Source of the DNA: Candidatus Sungiibacteriota bacterium
GTDB lineage: Bacteria; Patescibacteriota; Minisyncoccia; Sungbacterales; HO2-52-23
DNA: 64,000 nt
Reading direction: 5' to 3'
Assembly (NCBI GenBank): GCA_016432465.1
Contig: CP066690.1
Location: forward strand, 526,823-590,822
In this document: piece after piece, positions 15,661 to 46,110 of the stretch
Layout of the letters: each line of letters begins with the position of its first letter
Numbering within the stretch: the stretch's first letter is position 1
Notes under the pieces: generated by a model
The model's input: the letters and a program-made list of their open reading frames with translations, nothing else
Told to the model about the DNA's origin: nothing
The model's database searches: none
Translations under genes and position numbers: made by a program

Positions 15661-16013
15661 GGTGGAGATGGGGGGAATCGGACCCCCGTCTGGAAGTTTC
15701 GGCAGCTAAAATTTATACGGGTGTATCCCACACTTTGCGGGAAGAGGTGCTCGATAAATGTCATAACCCCTATCGAGCATCTGGGTTACCAAGCTCGGTG
15801 TTATAACACCGGTTTGCTCTCTCACGAGCGTTGAGAGACCGATGCCACAAATCCGAAGATTCGTAGGGTTCTTTCGTTAAGCTACTGCGTAGGCAGGCTG
15901 CGCGAAAGATTTAAATAAGTTTGCACTTATTTGATGCGAGAATTTAACGAGTGATCTCGCGTCCTCGACCCGATTTTAACCACCTCTGACCCCCATCGAA
16001 GCCAATCATCCCC
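15661..16013 (-). ncRNA. ssrA: tmRNA (SsrA), about 353 nt
   Basis: Minus-strand 5' end GGGGAUGAUUGGCUUCGAUGGGGG. 3' end GGGGGUCCGAUUCCCCCCAUCUCCACC (T-arm plus acceptor). Internal tag ORF GCA AAC UUA ... GCU UAA encodes ANLFKSFAQPAYAVA*. smpB is adjacent. Confidence 0.8.
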
Positions 16014-16095: not shown

Positions 16096-16551
16096 TCAGG
16101 AAAGCTTCGAAGTGCGCAGCGCTCTTTTAACTTCTCGTTCGGTGTCACGTTTTTTGATAATCTCCCGTTTGTCTGTCTTCCTTTTATGCCGCGCGAGGCC
16201 TATTAAAATCTTCACGCGGTTACGTTTAGTATACACCTTAAGTGGCACTATCGTCAATCCTTTCTGCGCTGAGGCGCCGATAAGTTCTTTGGTTTCGGAT
16301 TTATGGAGGAGGAGTCGGCGCGTTCTAATTGGGTCGTAATCGGGTGGCGCGTTTTTGGGCTGATGTGGTGGGATGGTTGCGTTAATCAGCCACGCCTCGT
16401 TATTTTTTATAACCGCGAAAGAGCCGGATAGGTTTATATGTCCGGTTTTTATTGCCTTTACCTCAAATCCGCGTAGTTCAATACCGGCCTCGTAGGTGTC
16501 CAGGACTTCATAGTCAAAATAGGCCCGACGGTTAACCGCAATGTCTCCCAT
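16096..16551 (-). CDS. smpB: SsrA-binding protein SmpB
   Basis: Typical SmpB sequence (RRAYFDYEVLDTYEAGIELRGFEVK...). Confidence 0.9.
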   Translation of the reverse strand: MGDIAVNRRAYFDYEVLDTYEAGIELRGFEVKAIKTGHINLSGSFAVIKNNEAWLINATIPPHQPKNAPPDYDPIRTRRLLLHKSETKELIGASAQKGLTIVPLKVYTKRNRVKILIGLARHKRKTDKREIIKKRDTEREVKRALRTSKLS

Positions 16552-16590: not shown

Positions 16591-18174
16591 ATGATAAGAT
16601 CCGAAATAAAAGCCGCGTTGAGGGACGCAATCCGGAAAATATTCGGCAAAGTTGAGGCGCCGGAATTTTCTATTGAGGTTCCGGAAAATCCGGAGCATGG
16701 CGATTATGCAACAAACGTAGCGCTAGTGCTGGCCAAGCAACTGAAAAAGCCTCCGATGGAAATCGCGCATAGTCTTGCCGCGCAACTTACAACTAAAGTC
16801 GAAGTTGCCCCCCCGGGATTTATTAATTTCTGGGTTTCCCCTGCTACATTATATAAAGAACTCGTTACGGTTCTGAAAAAGAATGACAAATATGGAAAGG
16901 GAGAGAGAAAGGCAACAAAAATCTCGGTTGAGTATCTGGACGCTAACCCCACTGGGCCTGTACATATAGGCCACGGACGCAGTGGGTTTTTGGGTGATGT
17001 ACTTTCCAACGTTCTTTCTTTTTTTGGATACCGCGTGACCAGAGAGTTTTATGTGAATAATGCCAAAATTAGTGGCCAGATAAAATCGTTAGGAAAAACT
17101 GCGCTTGGAAAAGGCAGCGAATACCGCCACGCACAGCTGCTTCGTATTCTAAAAACTCAACGGGTCCATACAAAAATCAAAAAATTAAAAAACGAAAGCG
17201 AGGCAGGATTTATTATCGCGCGTATAATACAGAAAGAAAATGAGGAATTGCTTAAAGAAAAAGCAAGGATTAGTTTTGATTTATTTTTTGAAGAAGAGGC
17301 GGTTTACAAATCTGGCGACGCAGAGCGGCTTCTCGGGCGTCTTAAAAAACAAGGAATTTTGTATGAGAAAGATGGCGCTTGGTGGTTTCAGGCAAAGAAA
17401 TTCGGCGACGCAGAAGATCGTGTTTTTGTACGAAGCACCGGAGAGCCGACATATATTGTTCCGGACATTGTTTACCACCTTGATAAGTTAGTGAATCGTA
17501 AAAACGACCTTGTTATCAATATCTTTGGCGCGGACCACTATGGTTACGGACCGCGTCTTCTGGGGGCCTTGAAGGCGCTTGGTATTGAACCGGCAAGGGT
17601 TCGTATACTCATCATGCAGACAGTCCGTCTGATTAAGGGCGGAAAAGAATTTAAGATGTCAAAACGCCGCGGCCTCTTTGTGACGCTTGAGGAACTTATT
17701 AAAGAAGTCGGTTTGGATGCCGCGCGGTACTTTTTCTTGGAAAAATCTCCGGATACGCATATGGATTTTGATCTGGATTTGGCAAAAGAGCGGTCGGTGA
17801 AGAATCCGGTGTACTATATTCAATATGCCCATGCTAGAATTTCGAGCATCTTTAAAAATGCTCGAAATTCAAATTACAAATTACAAATTACAAATTACAA
17901 ATTACTTAAAGAGAGGGAAGAACTAAGACTAATTAAAAAATTGATCCAATTCACCGAGATTGTGGAGGATACCGCTCGCGATTATCAAGTTCACCGTCTG
18001 CCGCGTTATGCTTACGAGCTTGCCCGCGCTTTTCATAATTTTTACGAAAAGCACCGCGTGATTACCGAAGATAAAAATTTGACCGCCGCCCGTCTTAATC
18101 TTGTTTCCGCAACCCAAGTTGTACTGAAAAATATTCTTAGTTTGATGGGTATCGGCGCGCCTGAAAAAATGTGA
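16591..18174 (+). CDS. argS: arginyl-tRNA synthetase
   Basis: HIGH-region PTGPVHIGHGRS. Class I ArgRS anticodon-binding C-terminus. Confidence 0.9.
   Translation: MIRSEIKAALRDAIRKIFGKVEAPEFSIEVPENPEHGDYATNVALVLAKQLKKPPMEIAHSLAAQLTTKVEVAPPGFINFWVSPATLYKELVTVLKKNDKYGKGERKATKISVEYLDANPTGPVHIGHGRSGFLGDVLSNVLSFFGYRVTREFYVNNAKISGQIKSLGKTALGKGSEYRHAQLLRILKTQRVHTKIKKLKNESEAGFIIARIIQKENEELLKEKARISFDLFFEEEAVYKSGDAERLLGRLKKQGILYEKDGAWWFQAKKFGDAEDRVFVRSTGEPTYIVPDIVYHLDKLVNRKNDLVINIFGADHYGYGPRLLGALKALGIEPARVRILIMQTVRLIKGGKEFKMSKRRGLFVTLEELIKEVGLDAARYFFLEKSPDTHMDFDLDLAKERSVKNPVYYIQYAHARISSIFKNARNSNYKLQITNYKLLKEREELRLIKKLIQFTEIVEDTARDYQVHRLPRYAYELARAFHNFYEKHRVITEDKNLTAARLNLVSATQVVLKNILSLMGIGAPEKM
17837..17898. 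repeat. 13-bp perfect inverted repeat (GAATTTCGAGCAT..ATGCTCGAAATTC) followed by (AAATTAC)x4 heptamer tandem array, in frame inside argS
   Basis: Read directly. Encodes ARISSIFKNARNSNYKLQITNYKLLKE. Confidence 0.8.
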
Positions 18175-21100
18175 CTATGAATATAGAAAAATCAAAATTA
18201 AGCCTTCCGGAGTTGGCCGCCCACCGAAAATGGGCGAGCCTCGCTCTTCCGGAGCGGGAAGAAAAAATTCTGAAATTCTGGGAGGAAAATAAAATTTTTG
18301 AAAAGTCCCTTGAAAAAACTAAACGGGGAAAGACCTTTGTTTTTTACGAAGGTCCTCCGACAGCCAATGCCGCTCCCGGGATTCATCACGTTTTGGCGCG
18401 CGCCTTCAAAGACATTATTCCGCGCTACAAAACCATGCGCGGGTTTTTTGTTCCGAGAAAAGCTGGTTGGGATACGCACGGTCTGCCCGTTGAGATTCAA
18501 ATAGAAAAAGAGCTTGGATTTAAAACCAAGCAGGATATAGAAAAATACGGCATTGCCAAGTTTAACCAAAAAGCCAAGGAGTCGGTGTGGCGTTACAAAG
18601 AAGAGTGGGAAAAGCTGACTAAGCGTATTGGGTATTGGCTTGACCTTGAGCACCCTTACATAACTTATGACATCCGGTATATGGAAACCCTCTGGTGGGT
18701 TATAAAAGAAATTTGGAAAAAGGGTTTACTGGTTGAAGATTTTAAAGTAGTTCCTTGGTGCCCTAGGTGTCAGACCGGACTTTCCACGCACGAGCTCGGC
18801 CAACCCGGAGCCTACAGATTAGTAAAAGATAACTCTATATATGTAAAACTAAAAATTAAGGGCCGTAAAAACGAGTACTTATTGGTTTGGACCACAACTC
18901 CATGGACGCTTCCCGCCAATGTTGCCGTAGCCGTCAATCCCAAGATTGATTACACAAAATTTAAAATTGATGATGAATTTTTGTGGTCAGCGGTGATGCC
19001 GCCCTACGGCAAAGACCAAAAGATTACGATCATAGAAAAAGCGTCCGGCAAATCTCTTATCGGTATAAATTATGAACCGCTTTTCCGTGTTCCCCAAGGC
19101 TACTCTTGGGGTAAAGAACCGGAGTTTGTAACAATCCCGGCAGATTTTGTTTCCACCGAAGAGGGGACGGGCATGGTTCATATTGCTCCTGCCTTCGGAG
19201 ACGAAGATATGTTGGCGGCCAAGAAAACTTGGGGCGCAAGCTATCCGATTTTACACACTGTTAATGTAAACGGAAAAATGAAAAAGGGAGTAATCGGGGA
19301 GGGGAAATTTGTCAAGGATGCGGACGAGGAGATAACCGCTGACCTTAAGAGGCGTAAACTTCTTTATCGCTTGGCGCCGTACGAACACGAGTATCCCCAC
19401 TGCTGGAGATGTGATACTCCGCTGCTTTATTTTGCCCAAAACGCTTGGTGGATAAGAACCACCGCCGTAAAAGACAAGCTTCTTAAAGAAAACGAAAAAA
19501 TTAACTGGATTCCGGAGCATTTAAAACACGGCCGCTTCGGCGATTTTTTGCGCGAGCTACGCGATTGGGCTTTTTCGCGCGAGAGGTATTGGGGAACGCC
19601 GCTTCCTATTTGGAAATGTACAGGGTGCAAAAAGCAAGAAGTTATCGGCAGCAGAGAAGAATTGAGTTTACGTGTCGGCAAAGCCAAGAACCGCTATTTT
19701 GCCATGCGTCACGGCGAGTCACTTGCCAACGTCCGCCACGTTTTTGATTCCCACGACAGTAAATTTCCAATAACCCTTAGGGGACGCAGCGCAGTAGAAA
19801 AGTCCGCCAAGACATTAAAACAAAAAAAGATAGATTTTATTTTTTCTTCAGAAATTCTTCGGGCACGAGAAACTGCAGAGATTGTAGCCAGGGCCCTTGG
19901 CCATAAAGAAATAAAATTTGACAGGCGTCTTAACGAAATTGACCCGGGCGTATTTGAAGGAAGATCTCCTGCCGAATATCATAAGTTTTATACCTCTACT
20001 CTTGAGAAATGGATAAAGCCCCCTCCGCGGGGAGAGTCTTTGGGAGACGTGCGAGCAAGAGCAACAGCGCTTCTGGAGGATTTAGAGAAAAAATATATAG
20101 GCAAAAATATTCTTTTGGTGAGTCATGACTATCCGATTTGGGCCCTGTATGCCGGAGCCGTGGGTTTTTCGGACGAGGAAGCGGTGCTATTTAGGAAACA
20201 GAGACGTGGGCAAGGAGAAGAATTTGTTGATTTTGCAGAAACCATGGAAGTCCCCTACAAAATTTTACCGCGCGATGATACGGGTTCGGTAAACCTGCAC
20301 CGACCCTATGTGGATTCATTTGAGTTTCCGTGCCATAAGTGTAAATCTTCAATGCGGCGAGTATTGGAAGTGGTTGATGTCTGGTTTGATTCGGGGGCGA
20401 TGCCGTTTGCTCAAAGCCACTGGCCATTTGCTAACAACCAACAACCTAAAAAATTGCTGTACCCCGCGGATTATATTGCGGAGGCGGTGGACCAGACAAG
20501 GGGCTGGTTTTATACCTTGCTTGCCGTGGCAACGCTTCTGGGGAAAGGGGCTCCGTATAAAAATGTCATTTCACTGGGACACGTTTTGGACAAAAACGGC
20601 CAGAAAATGTCCAAGTCCAAGGGCAACGTGGTTGATCCGTGGGAGATGATTGAAAAATACGGCGCCGACGCAGTCCGCTGGTATTTTTATACGGTTAATG
20701 CGCCCGGAGAGCCAAAACGTTTTGATGAAAAAGATTTACAGGCGAAACTGCGCGGATTTCTTATGACACTCTGGAACAGCTTTGTGCTTTTTGATACGTA
20801 TATAGAAAAAATTACAAATTCCTCGCCTCGTTCAAGCTCCGGCGGAGCGGGCAAAACCCAAAACCTTCTTGATCGGTGGGTCCTCACGAAAGTAGAAATT
20901 TTGATAAAAGAAGTTACGGCAAAGCTTGAGCGCTACGATATTGCCGGAGCGGGACGCGACTTGGAAGATTTTGTTATCAACGACTTTTCGCAATGGTATT
21001 TGCGGCGCTCCCGCAGACGTTTCCAACACCCGCAGTCCAAAAAAGAATTTGAGGGAGCCGCACAAACGACTGCTACGGCTTTGTTATCTCTAGTTAAACT

Positions 21101-21713
21101 TATTGCGCCGTTTGTCCCATTTTTGTCGGAGGCAATTTATCAAGAATTGAAAAAGAAAATGTCTCTTAAGGAATTGAGCGTACATCTCACACCGTGGCCC
21201 GACAAAGAGCAAAGAACAAGGGGTAAAGAGCAAAAATTACTGGATGATATGGAAGCAGTGCGGACCATTGTGGCCGAAGCTCTGAAATTACGTGCGGTAG
21301 CAGGAATTAAGGTAAGACAACCGCTGGGTATACTACAAATTGCAAATCGCAAATTATCTAAGGAGCTTCTGGGGCTTATTAAAGACGAAGTGAATGTGAA
21401 AGATATCGTCCTTGGTAGGGTATTGAAACTTGATACTGCGCTAACCCCGGAATTAAAAGAAGAAGGTTTGGCGCGCGAATTTATCCGCAACATTCAGGAG
21501 ATGCGAAAGGATTTGGGATTAAAACCCAAACAGGTTATTCGGGGACAGATAACGGGTGATAGAGCGACCGAAGATACGATGGTCAAGTGGCAGCAGATGA
21601 TTAAAAAAGAGACCAACATGCGCGAGTTAAAAGTCGGCGGCAAAAAAGAATTTAAAATAGAGCGTGAACTTGATTTTGACGGTAAATCCTTGTGGTTGGG
21701 GATTAAAGTATAA
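18171..21713 (+). CDS. ileS: isoleucyl-tRNA synthetase (type 2) carrying an inserted histidine-phosphatase-family domain
   Basis: HIGH-type GIHHV and KMSKS. Conserved SRERYWGTPLP and HRPYVD blocks are separated by about 190 aa containing RHGES and LVSHD motifs. GTG start overlaps the argS stop. Confidence 0.9.
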   Translation: MTMNIEKSKLSLPELAAHRKWASLALPEREEKILKFWEENKIFEKSLEKTKRGKTFVFYEGPPTANAAPGIHHVLARAFKDIIPRYKTMRGFFVPRKAGWDTHGLPVEIQIEKELGFKTKQDIEKYGIAKFNQKAKESVWRYKEEWEKLTKRIGYWLDLEHPYITYDIRYMETLWWVIKEIWKKGLLVEDFKVVPWCPRCQTGLSTHELGQPGAYRLVKDNSIYVKLKIKGRKNEYLLVWTTTPWTLPANVAVAVNPKIDYTKFKIDDEFLWSAVMPPYGKDQKITIIEKASGKSLIGINYEPLFRVPQGYSWGKEPEFVTIPADFVSTEEGTGMVHIAPAFGDEDMLAAKKTWGASYPILHTVNVNGKMKKGVIGEGKFVKDADEEITADLKRRKLLYRLAPYEHEYPHCWRCDTPLLYFAQNAWWIRTTAVKDKLLKENEKINWIPEHLKHGRFGDFLRELRDWAFSRERYWGTPLPIWKCTGCKKQEVIGSREELSLRVGKAKNRYFAMRHGESLANVRHVFDSHDSKFPITLRGRSAVEKSAKTLKQKKIDFIFSSEILRARETAEIVARALGHKEIKFDRRLNEIDPGVFEGRSPAEYHKFYTSTLEKWIKPPPRGESLGDVRARATALLEDLEKKYIGKNILLVSHDYPIWALYAGAVGFSDEEAVLFRKQRRGQGEEFVDFAETMEVPYKILPRDDTGSVNLHRPYVDSFEFPCHKCKSSMRRVLEVVDVWFDSGAMPFAQSHWPFANNQQPKKLLYPADYIAEAVDQTRGWFYTLLAVATLLGKGAPYKNVISLGHVLDKNGQKMSKSKGNVVDPWEMIEKYGADAVRWYFYTVNAPGEPKRFDEKDLQAKLRGFLMTLWNSFVLFDTYIEKITNSSPRSSSGGAGKTQNLLDRWVLTKVEILIKEVTAKLERYDIAGAGRDLEDFVINDFSQWYLRRSRRRFQHPQSKKEFEGAAQTTATALLSLVKLIAPFVPFLSEAIYQELKKKMSLKELSVHLTPWPDKEQRTRGKEQKLLDDMEAVRTIVAEALKLRAVAGIKVRQPLGILQIANRKLSKELLGLIKDEVNVKDIVLGRVLKLDTALTPELKEEGLAREFIRNIQEMRKDLGLKPKQVIRGQITGDRATEDTMVKWQQMIKKETNMRELKVGGKKEFKIERELDFDGKSLWLGIKV

Positions 21714-22028: not shown

Positions 22029-22490
22029 ATGCACACCACCGAAGGCATTATTTTGAGAAAACAAGACTTCGGAGAAGCGGACGCCGTTTTTACTATTTAT
22101 ACCAAAGATTTTGGCAAGCTTCGCCTGCTGGCGCAGGGAGTAAAAAAGGAAGGGGCAAAACTAAAAGGACATCTGGAGCCGTTGAATCATGCCCGCATAA
22201 CTTTTGTGCTTGGTAGAAACGGAGAACGCCTAACTCACGCCACCCTGCTTAATTTTGGGCCGGAGCTTCGCACTGATTTTGCTAAACTTTACGCAGCACA
22301 CCGTGTTGTCGGCTGCATTGACAACCGGACATTTCCCGGCGAAAGAGATAGACCGCTTTGGGACTTGTTGGTCAATAGTTTAACACGGCTGGACAACGGC
22401 GCTTTTAGCGCCTCGGAACTACAGCTGTTTTTTGGTTCTTTTGAGAAAGAGCTGGAAGCCTGCCTTGGTTACGGCAGGCCAGAGTCGTAG
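22029..22490 (+). CDS. recO: DNA repair protein RecO-like (short, N-terminal OB-fold region only)
   Basis: GIILRKQDFGEADAVFTIYTKDFGKLRLLAQGVKK...LEPLN matches the RecO N-domain pattern. Confidence 0.55.
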   Translation: MHTTEGIILRKQDFGEADAVFTIYTKDFGKLRLLAQGVKKEGAKLKGHLEPLNHARITFVLGRNGERLTHATLLNFGPELRTDFAKLYAAHRVVGCIDNRTFPGERDRPLWDLLVNSLTRLDNGAFSASELQLFFGSFEKELEACLGYGRPES

Positions 22491-46024: not shown

Positions 46025-46110
46025 TGGTGCCCGGGGAGAGACTTGAACTCTCAAGGTCTTGCGACCAGTGGATTTTGAGTCCACCGCGTATGCCATTCCG
46101 CCACCCGGGC
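46025..46110 (-). tRNA. tRNA-Leu (anticodon CAA), type II with long variable arm, CCA encoded
   Basis: Minus strand GCCCGGGTGGCGGAATGG...GGACTCAAAATCC...GGTCGCAAGACC...GAGAGTTCAAGTCTCTCCCCGGGCACCA. Confidence 0.85.

Follow-up and report, generated by a model that had tools for sequence, protein, structure and literature searches.

A histidine phosphatase domain nested in the type-2 isoleucyl-tRNA synthetase of a Sungiibacteriota bacterium and its relatives

The isoleucyl-tRNA synthetase (IleRS) gene ileS of a Candidatus Sungiibacteriota bacterium (assembly GCA_016432465.1) lies at positions 18171-21713 on the + strand of the window analysed here, a stretch of 64,000 nucleotides from contig CP066690.1 (positions 526,823 to 590,822). 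It encodes a type-2 IleRS of 1180 amino acids in which a histidine phosphatase is nested. Our best reading is that the product is a bifunctional protein, which joins a normal IleRS to an autonomous phosphatase predicted from its sequence to be active. In much of Parcubacteria an IleRS with a nested phosphatase is the rule, and arrangements related to it occur across the Candidate Phyla Radiation (CPR).

The insert, at a position that we call site A, occupies amino acids 505-698 (19683-20264, + strand). These 194 residues comprise a complete histidine-phosphatase domain with short linkers, and the boundaries were taken from insert-less orthologs. In the latter, KRSG is followed directly by TLPRDE..NLHRPYVD, whereas the window protein reads RVGK, then the insert (AKNRYFAMRHGES...EVPYKI) and then LPRDD..NLHRPYVD. 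In the alignment with the solved Thermus thermophilus IleRS (1ile), residues 26-504 and 708-1046 of the window protein correspond to residues 10-482 and 489-821 of 1ile, and about 200 residues (505-707) stand in place of about six. The flanking blocks are 13-19 residues apart in six insert-less relatives. The Pfam tRNA-synt_1 match is split in two by a match to His_Phos_1 (PF00300) at amino acids 511-670 (19701-20180, + strand; E 2.8e-35, 122 bits versus a cutoff of 21.7), and scores for this family ranged from 122 to 127 bits (E 2.8e-35 / 9.4e-37). The insert has the alpha/beta fold of the histidine phosphatase superfamily. In the AlphaFold2 (AF2) model of the full-length protein it has the same secondary structure, with a pLDDT of about 95. 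It aligns end to end with free-standing proteins of about 190-200 amino acids, including their KNRYFAMRHG N-terminus and their last strand. The data show that the guest is a complete branch-1 histidine phosphatase of about 190 residues, of the small PhoE/PspA/CobC type. A preliminary description of this DNA, made from the letters alone, had proposed an in-frame insertion of about 190 residues into an IleS of 1180 residues, between blocks that are 10-20 residues apart elsewhere, and had assigned it to the PGAM-like histidine phosphatases. All of this is borne out, and the His_Phos match on which the assignment depended is highly significant. The limits then given, 19690-20235 (amino acids 507-688), were in the right place but slightly short, and their first base was off the codon boundary.

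The HUP core of Priestia megaterium IleRS2 (PmIleRS2) consists of residues 40-168 and 513-632, with connective peptides 1 and 2 (CP1 and CP2) between them (PMC10485003). Because the alignment maps site A onto these domain limits, the insertion point is in CP2, at the tip of the zinc-knuckle hairpin and just before the second half of the Rossmann/HUP fold. The insert had been described as lying in the catalytic core; it is indeed in the body of the IleRS, but in this hairpin and not in the core proper. The zinc knuckle is formed by a first CxxC just 5' of the insert (C483 and C486; 19617-19628, + strand) and a second CxxC 3' of it (C721 and C724; 20331-20342, + strand), both 100% conserved in 120 sequences. 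All four cysteines are invariant in Parcubacteria IleRS, with or without the insert.

The residues expected of an active histidine phosphatase are present, and they are conserved in the 114 related inserts described below. The RHG motif consists of R513, the nucleophilic H514 and G515 (19707-19715, + strand); R and H are found in all 114 inserts and G in 110. The second phosphate-binding arginine, R564 of the SSxxxR motif (19860-19862, + strand), is kept in 113 of 114. The presumed proton donor, E589 (19935-19937, + strand), is always acidic (E in 90, D in 24). E622 and R630 of the GES..D..R block (20034-20060, + strand) are invariant, as is the second catalytic histidine, H652, in LLVSHDYP (20124-20126, + strand). 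Both catalytic histidines had been noticed in the preliminary description; translation places them at H514 and H652, and both arginines and the acidic donor can now be added. Over its whole length the insert shares only 43% identity with the query, compared with 62% for the IleRS core, yet R513, H514, E622, R630 and H652 are invariant, and the invariant catalytic set is therefore a signature, read from sequence, of selection for catalysis.

The insert belongs to the superfamily but, judged by its profile scores, to no characterised subfamily, because it fails to reach the cutoffs of all NCBIfam equivalog models that represent characterised histidine phosphatases. For models of the dPGM (cofactor-dependent phosphoglycerate mutase) kind it scored 81-83 bits versus 225 (dPGM_arch), 31 versus 81.7 (pgm_1) and 52-57 versus 261 (GpmB); for the others it scored 66-71 versus 350 (PspA), 73-78 versus 162.9 (CobC) and 31-36 versus 74.5 (SixA). 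The best NCBIfam match was PRK07238, with 85-89 bits versus a cutoff of 326.

The data also show that the host is a complete type-2 IleRS: it keeps GIHH and KMSKS as well as intact CP1 editing motifs and an intact anticodon-binding domain. The window protein scored 873 bits with TIGR00392 ileS (cutoff 621), and its best solved relatives are 1ile (E 2.8e-238) and PmIleRS2 (E 4e-237). A structure prediction of the whole protein had been proposed as a check; the AF2 model has a pLDDT of 90.7 and a pTM of 0.85, and the modelled IleRS body matches the solved IleRS2 structures (PmIleRS2, 1ile) with target-normalised TM scores of 0.80-0.89. The class-I HIGH signature takes the form GIHH (amino acids 70-73; 18378-18389, + strand). 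This is a version of the non-canonical G/AxHH form, which in type-2 IleRS is linked to mupirocin hyper-resistance (PMC10485003). The KMSKS loop is intact (amino acids 812-816; 20604-20618, + strand). In CP1 the WTTTPWT and GTG.VH.AP blocks are invariant, and the editing-domain structures 1wk8 and 1wny match amino acids 215-410. Pfam places Anticodon_1 at amino acids 901-1053 and DUF5915 at amino acids 1086-1179. With NF040702 ileS_w_GNAT, an NCBIfam model for IleRS with an N-acetyltransferase domain, the window protein reached 274 bits versus a cutoff of 1999, and it has no acetyltransferase match in Pfam.

A survey of related IleRS, likewise suggested beforehand, found the insert at the same point in 114 of the 120 closest clusters (Parcubacteria; 50-66% identity), with insert lengths of 206-217 amino acids. 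The length is uniform, and the linker residues N507 and P700 are conserved. In a neighbour-joining tree of the core alone, the six insert-less enzymes are found at about four places among the insert-bearing ones. One insert-less ortholog (P0067) occupies the same argS-ileS locus as the window gene, and because of it the nested form is shown to be dispensable for IleRS. A full-length alignment scan of GTDB species representatives covered a sample of loci with generic IleRS2 patterns and was not a census. Among the matches listed, the embedded domain occurred only in Patescibacteria of the Paceibacteria/Minisyncoccia (Parcubacteria) type, and it was absent from Saccharibacteria, one other Patescibacteria locus, all Actinomycetota, Bacillota and Chloroflexota, and other IleRS2. 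The taxonomic range is Parcubacteria together with Gracilibacteria, Peregrinibacteria and Peribacteria. It had been said that the idea of an inserted module would fail if the segment were a normal part of IleRS in related lineages. Such a normal part it formally is, but this does not render it ordinary, since it is absent from the type-2 IleRS sampled outside the CPR.

The phosphatase also occurs as a separate gene beside ileS. In a metagenome scan, at least nine diverged loci had the order argS (arginyl-tRNA synthetase, ArgRS), a separate histidine phosphatase open reading frame (ORF) of about 190 amino acids, an insert-less ileS (969-amino-acid ORF) and recO, with the genes abutting or overlapping; other loci had the window-like order argS ... 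ileS with the phosphatase nested ... recO. The separate gene between argS and ileS was seen across two IleRS subtypes. Because the separate phosphatases are 53-57% identical to the nested site-A copies, and the N-terminal halves of the IleRS can reach 63-68% identity between the two arrangements, the nested and separate states have, on sequence comparison, interconverted within Parcubacteria. Some apparent losses of the insert may be relocations. A further arrangement is a fusion to ArgRS (P0221), which has the window synteny SmpB, ArgRS-phosphatase, RecO, ..., class II aminoacyl-tRNA synthetase, M16 peptidase and AI-2E, without ileS. The fusion came about in one member of the separate-gene clade by loss of the stop codon. 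Loss of ileS with retention of the phosphatase was considered as a general reading of the ArgRS fusion and rejected; it is true of the P0221 locus only, and the wider clade has the phosphatase and an insert-less ileS.

When the insert was used as a profile in an exhaustive search of 1.84 billion representatives, 681 proteins matched at E<=1e-30. The top 150 consisted of 95 IleRS (many of them fragments), one valyl-tRNA synthetase (ValRS), 42 free-standing proteins (177-220 amino acids) and 12 others, which included one ArgRS and one Sua5/TsaC, each with a C-terminal copy, and several tandem di-domain proteins. The only identified non-phosphatase hosts in the top 150 were thus IleRS, ValRS, ArgRS and Sua5/TsaC, in a tally that leaves out P0241 and P0247, short proteins with N-terminal extensions. 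A word-indexed search with the 207-amino-acid insert gave 19 distant free-standing proteins and no embedded copy, and missed even the 100%-identical P0020. Such searches are prone to miss domain queries against long multi-domain proteins, and the exhaustive profile search and full-length searches mended this. The Sua5/YciO/YrdC protein (P0197, locus L096) belongs to the threonylcarbamoyl-AMP synthase family, and the nearest relative of its C-terminal copy is a Parcubacterial site-A copy (49% identity). The ValRS (P0140; L097/L098) has a ValRS N-terminus followed by four tandem phosphatase domains, with a second tRNA-synt_1 segment between them; fusion to ValRS is weakly supported.

In a second IleRS clade (Gracilibacteria, Peregrinibacteria and Peribacteria), which shares 37-41% identity with the window enzyme, the domain is found at two other loops, sites B and C. 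Site B follows WF(D/E)SG in this clade. The corresponding loop after DVWFDSG is empty in the window protein (amino acids 750-765; 20418-20465, + strand), and in other CPR IleRS it holds a His_Phos, GNAT, kinase, HAD or hydrolase domain. Site C is the loop before the anticodon-binding domain (amino acids 879-900; 20805-20870, + strand), which holds His_Phos in Gracilibacteria-type IleRS. In the window protein it is empty, Ser/Gly-rich and of low complexity (EKITNSSPRSSSGGAGKTQNLL), with an AF2 pLDDT of 65-70. The sites are occupied as C alone, B+C, A+C, A+A or A+B+C, and up to three phosphatase domains are found in one IleRS of 1570-1740 amino acids. We compared 419 domain copies, which included 247 from site A, 18 from site B, 60 from site C, 60 free and 18 tandem, and the ArgRS-fused and Sua5-fused ones. 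The nearest neighbour of a copy was at the same site in 232 of 247 cases for A, 14 of 18 for B and 58 of 60 for C. Since same-site copies in different proteins are mutual nearest relatives, the occupancy of each site is old and vertically inherited. The catalytic set is kept in the 419 copies, except that five fragmentary site-A copies have gaps and that single substitutions occur in isolated cases, and for the RHG motif the exceptions are gaps in fragments and one substitution. In several second-clade IleRS (P0146, P0152 and P0218), the zinc-knuckle cysteines that flank site A are lost.

The phosphatase is not the only guest of these loops. In the second clade the same loops host GNAT, P-loop AAA_18/33 kinase, serine hydrolase and DUF559 domains, in IleRS of 1200-1860 amino acids (P0290, P0351, P0340, P0302, P0350 and others), and GNAT is often carried together with His_Phos. 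In P0350, site B is occupied by HAD-type phosphatase domains, and His_Phos is absent. Zeta-toxin, Y1 transposase and other domains were seen in related IleRS in precomputed Pfam assignments only. The breadth of the arrangement, with three sites, up to three copies per IleRS, an operon form and other guests, matters more than the single insert.

A reaction course can be proposed from the conserved residues and from what is known of the superfamily. H514 would attack a phosphomonoester or a terminal phosphate and form a phosphohistidine. R513, R564 and H652 would hold the phosphate, E589 would protonate the leaving group, and water would then release the phosphate. We infer that the domain is a phosphatase rather than a phosphoglycerate mutase, because nesting removes the free C-terminal tail and the scores stay below the cutoffs of the dPGM models. 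A free flexible C-terminal tail that closes the active site is a requirement for the mutase activity of dPGM, and no such tail is present here, as the end of the domain runs directly into IleRS at LPRD. Since the domain varies in position and copy number and also exists in a free form, its substrate would be a diffusible phosphorylated species, tied to the chemistry in which ATP gives acyl-AMP and pyrophosphate (PPi)/AMP or to the shared tRNA handling of the hosts, and not one channelled with precision from the active site of IleRS. The aminoacyl-adenylate, the tRNA termini and an unrelated metabolite, which the preliminary description had put forward as targets, are still speculative.

We lean, with some caution, towards a functional coupling between the phosphatase and the synthetase system, in which the phosphatase is a dedicated and long-standing partner of ileS rather than a random passenger. 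The partnership would be long-standing because, across the CPR, the domain is found between argS and ileS, nested at three loops, or fused to ArgRS, Sua5/TsaC and, weakly, ValRS. In favour of a functional tie we counted the narrow range of hosts, the use of three sites, the operon form and the case in which HAD domains replace His_Phos. Weighed against it were the promiscuity of the loops and the documented losses, together with several other observations. At least four presence/absence changes among 116 Parcubacterial IleRS were found in 98 of 100 bootstrap trees. P0067 has no phosphatase gene between argS and ileS, which means that the partnership is dispensable or that the gene lies elsewhere in the genome. 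The GNAT, kinase, hydrolase and DUF559 guests fit generally permissive loops as well as they fit a specific functional link. The ValRS case comes from 3.9-kb contigs of about 2x coverage, on which the ORF ends inside the fourth copy. Distant free-standing homologs have heterogeneous neighbourhoods (LigT/TRAM, transglutaminase/DUF2126, NudC-like Nudix) that give no clue to the substrate. None of the NCBIfam equivalog models (dPGM, CobC, PspA, SixA, GpmB) names a substrate, all scores being far below cutoff. The net charge and isoelectric point of the domain track the host and do not discriminate RNA binding, and tight gene packing alone is weak evidence, CPR genomes being compact. Under functional coupling, a diffusible nucleotide-type by-product or substrate is the most likely case, which we propose tentatively, and a substrate other than a nucleotide-type or tRNA-end phosphate is quite unlikely. 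The domain might instead have a housekeeping role with no link to aminoacylation, as an active phosphatase whose substrate is an unrelated metabolite such as a sugar phosphate or a phosphoserine-like compound. It would then reside in or beside ileS only because this gene is essential and steadily expressed in a streamlined genome and because IleRS offers long, permissive loops on its surface. This is possible, although we consider it doubtful. Unrelated enzymes, HAD domains included, do occupy the same three loops, and the variable position and copy number imply that geometry does not matter. The insert-less orthologs, with their four or more gain/loss or relocation events, the small-metabolite phosphatases PspA, GpgP, PhoE and CobC as closest solved structures, and the unrelated neighbourhoods of the distant free homologs all agree with such a role. 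It does not account for the strikingly narrow host range in the top 150 matches, for the place of the un-nested domain, which in two IleRS subtypes still lies squeezed between argS and ileS, or for the replacement of His_Phos by a non-homologous HAD phosphatase-type domain in one IleRS.

It is also conceivable that the phosphatase removes a 3'-phosphate, 2'-phosphate or pyrophosphate from the acceptor end of tRNA and so makes recharging possible; we regard this as unlikely. The blocked ends would arise by nuclease damage, by opening of cyclic phosphates or by pyrophosphorylation of the CCA end of the toxSAS type, and nesting would place the phosphatase where uncharged tRNA ends arrive. CPR synthetases would then be scaffolds of a built-in tRNA maintenance or immunity kit, in which the phosphatase cleans tRNA about to be charged and, in some lineages, a P-loop kinase, HAD phosphatase, GNAT or hydrolase sits in the same loops; we give this wider proposal the same low weight. 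All hosts, IleRS, ValRS, ArgRS and Sua5/YrdC, belong to tRNA metabolism, and Sua5/YrdC itself binds tRNA. In some IleRS a P-loop AAA_18/33 kinase accompanies His_Phos, or there is a domain of the HAD phosphatase type, and this echoes the kinase and phosphatase make-up of polynucleotide kinase-phosphatases such as T4 Pnkp. Archaeal-type free homologs adjoin LigT, a 2',3'-cyclic phosphodiesterase, and a TRAM RNA-binding protein; this neighbourhood, however, is divergently transcribed and occurs in one lineage only. To our knowledge, no histidine phosphatase acts on RNA ends. Toxins that block charging by pyrophosphorylation of the tRNA 3' end are documented (bioRxiv 10.1101/2021.04.30.441581; PMC11559606), but the PADLOC defence models matched no family in the insert and none in the whole protein. 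The variable sites, tandem copies and free form argue against an action on the bound acceptor end that depends on geometry, and the domain is not especially basic. A non-metabolic role, as a protein phosphatase or phospho-ligand sensor that regulates IleRS or as a purely structural module with kept motifs, is very unlikely. The uniform insert length and the conserved linkers N507 and P700 suggest a fixed mounting on the host, whereas more than 400 copies strictly conserve the full catalytic set, which argues against a non-catalytic role. The score with the SixA model is low, and the free-standing and differently placed copies argue against allostery tied to one site. That the insert is a chimeric junction, an intein or a recent mobile insertion can, on the sequence data, practically be set aside. 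Some related IleRS carry a DUF559 or Y1 transposase domain, which shows that mobile DNA does reach these genes, but nothing points specifically in this direction. Three assemblies contain the identical protein: an NCBI metagenome-assembled genome from the Parcubacteria group (Candidatus Sungiibacteriota; contig of 923 kb) and two independent assemblies from Logan. The insertion point is also shared by more than 100 orthologs that have diverged in sequence. An assembly chimera, which the preliminary description had named as a way in which its claim could fail, was therefore rejected. A recent horizontal insertion was rejected on composition, as neither GC content nor skew has a discontinuity across the insert. 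The intein had already been dismissed in the preliminary description, and correctly so, since the insert starts with AKNRYF and ends with VPYKI before LP, its only Pfam match is His_Phos_1, with no Hint/intein match, and its fold is that of a histidine phosphatase. Selection on the catalytic residues likewise speaks against a selfish element.

The window gene is preceded by argS (16591-18174, + strand), which encodes an ArgRS of 527 amino acids and is the conserved upstream neighbour of ileS; the same synteny is found at L007, L092 and L100-L114. The stop codon of argS overlaps the start of ileS in ATGTGA (window 18171-18177). The start of ileS may be GTG at 18171 (1180 amino acids, as called in the Logan assemblies) or ATG at 18177 (1178 amino acids, NCBI model P0020). 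A recO-like gene (22029-22490, + strand) is the conserved downstream neighbour of the argS-ileS pair. Directly upstream of argS and divergent from it, a 151-amino-acid ORF (16096-16551, - strand) occupies the position that SmpB has in related loci, and the SmpB-argS neighbourhood is kept at L007 and L092. This ORF adjoins a tmRNA gene (window 15661-16013, - strand) with the tag peptide ANLFKSFAQPAYAVA. A tRNA-Leu(CAA) gene (window 46025-46110, - strand) is the sole tRNA gene that ARAGORN found in the 64-kb window. As for the free-standing homologs, those at L003, L004 and L006 (about 36% identity) are on archaeal-looking contigs (RadA, ribosomal protein S2), where they are divergent from a TRAM-domain protein and a LigT 2H phosphoesterase. 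The free-standing homolog at L091 (P0010) overlaps the start of a co-directional NudC-like Nudix gene, near phosphonate-binding and ABC transporter genes.

Several known systems resemble the nested phosphatase in part. PspA (4ij5), GpgP (6s2q), PhoE (1h2e) and CobC (6e4b) are small branch-1 phosphatases to which the insert is 22-25% identical in structural alignment; they are free-standing, whereas the insert is nested in another enzyme and is below every NCBIfam equivalog cutoff. The RNase H/acid phosphatase proteins of PRK07238 (Rv2228c/SCO2299 type) likewise join His_Phos to a nucleic-acid enzyme, but as a terminal fusion with another partner, and the nested insert scores far below their cutoff. 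Mycobacterial MutT1 (Nudix and histidine phosphatase; 9cxx, 3fjy) is of the SixA-like short type, more distant, and again a terminal fusion with another partner. The histidine-phosphatase domain of TFIIIC tau55 (2yn0, 6yj6) is a distant relative in a eukaryotic transcription factor, not in a synthetase. NF040702 shows that curators have already recognised an IleRS variant with an extra enzymatic domain, under a name that does not include a phosphatase. The CP1 editing domain of class Ia synthetases (IleRS, ValRS and LeuRS) is the textbook example of nesting of this kind: a catalytic domain sits in a connective peptide that interrupts the Rossmann fold, and the insert is in the neighbouring CP2. 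CP1, however, is universal and acts on the mis-made products of its own enzyme, whereas the phosphatase is lineage-restricted, dispensable and of unrelated chemistry.

In current annotation, proteins of this kind appear simply under the name 'class I tRNA ligase family protein' or 'isoleucine--tRNA ligase', and the JGI pipeline labels one related protein 'isoleucyl-tRNA synthetase/phosphohistidine phosphatase SixA/...GNAT'. The sequences are public. In the full-text literature searched, which did not extend to subscription-only papers, we found no paper on a phosphatase or other enzymatic domain inside a CPR IleRS, and the arrangement is undescribed and unexplained there. The preliminary description had known of no synthetase with such a module; the wide occurrence of the insert among the closest IleRS means that the window protein is not unique. 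As a practical matter, the nested domain breaks the Pfam tRNA-synt_1 match in two, and the insert is to be masked when IleRS serves as a phylogenetic marker.

Few enzymes have been studied as thoroughly as the aminoacyl-tRNA synthetases, and time and again their idiosyncratic extra domains have brought new biology to light, such as editing and, in eukaryotes, signalling. So persistent a pattern usually reflects a functional dependency, yet aminoacylation has no known step for which a phosphatase is needed. If the tRNA-maintenance kit existed, it would provide the first histidine phosphatase of RNA ends and, alongside editing, a form of quality control that is new to class I synthetases. Knowledge of the substrate would reveal either a step of maintenance that is new to tRNA charging or to nucleotide handling, in organisms of minimal metabolism, or a clear natural case in which unrelated enzymes have been packed into essential proteins as genomes were streamlined.

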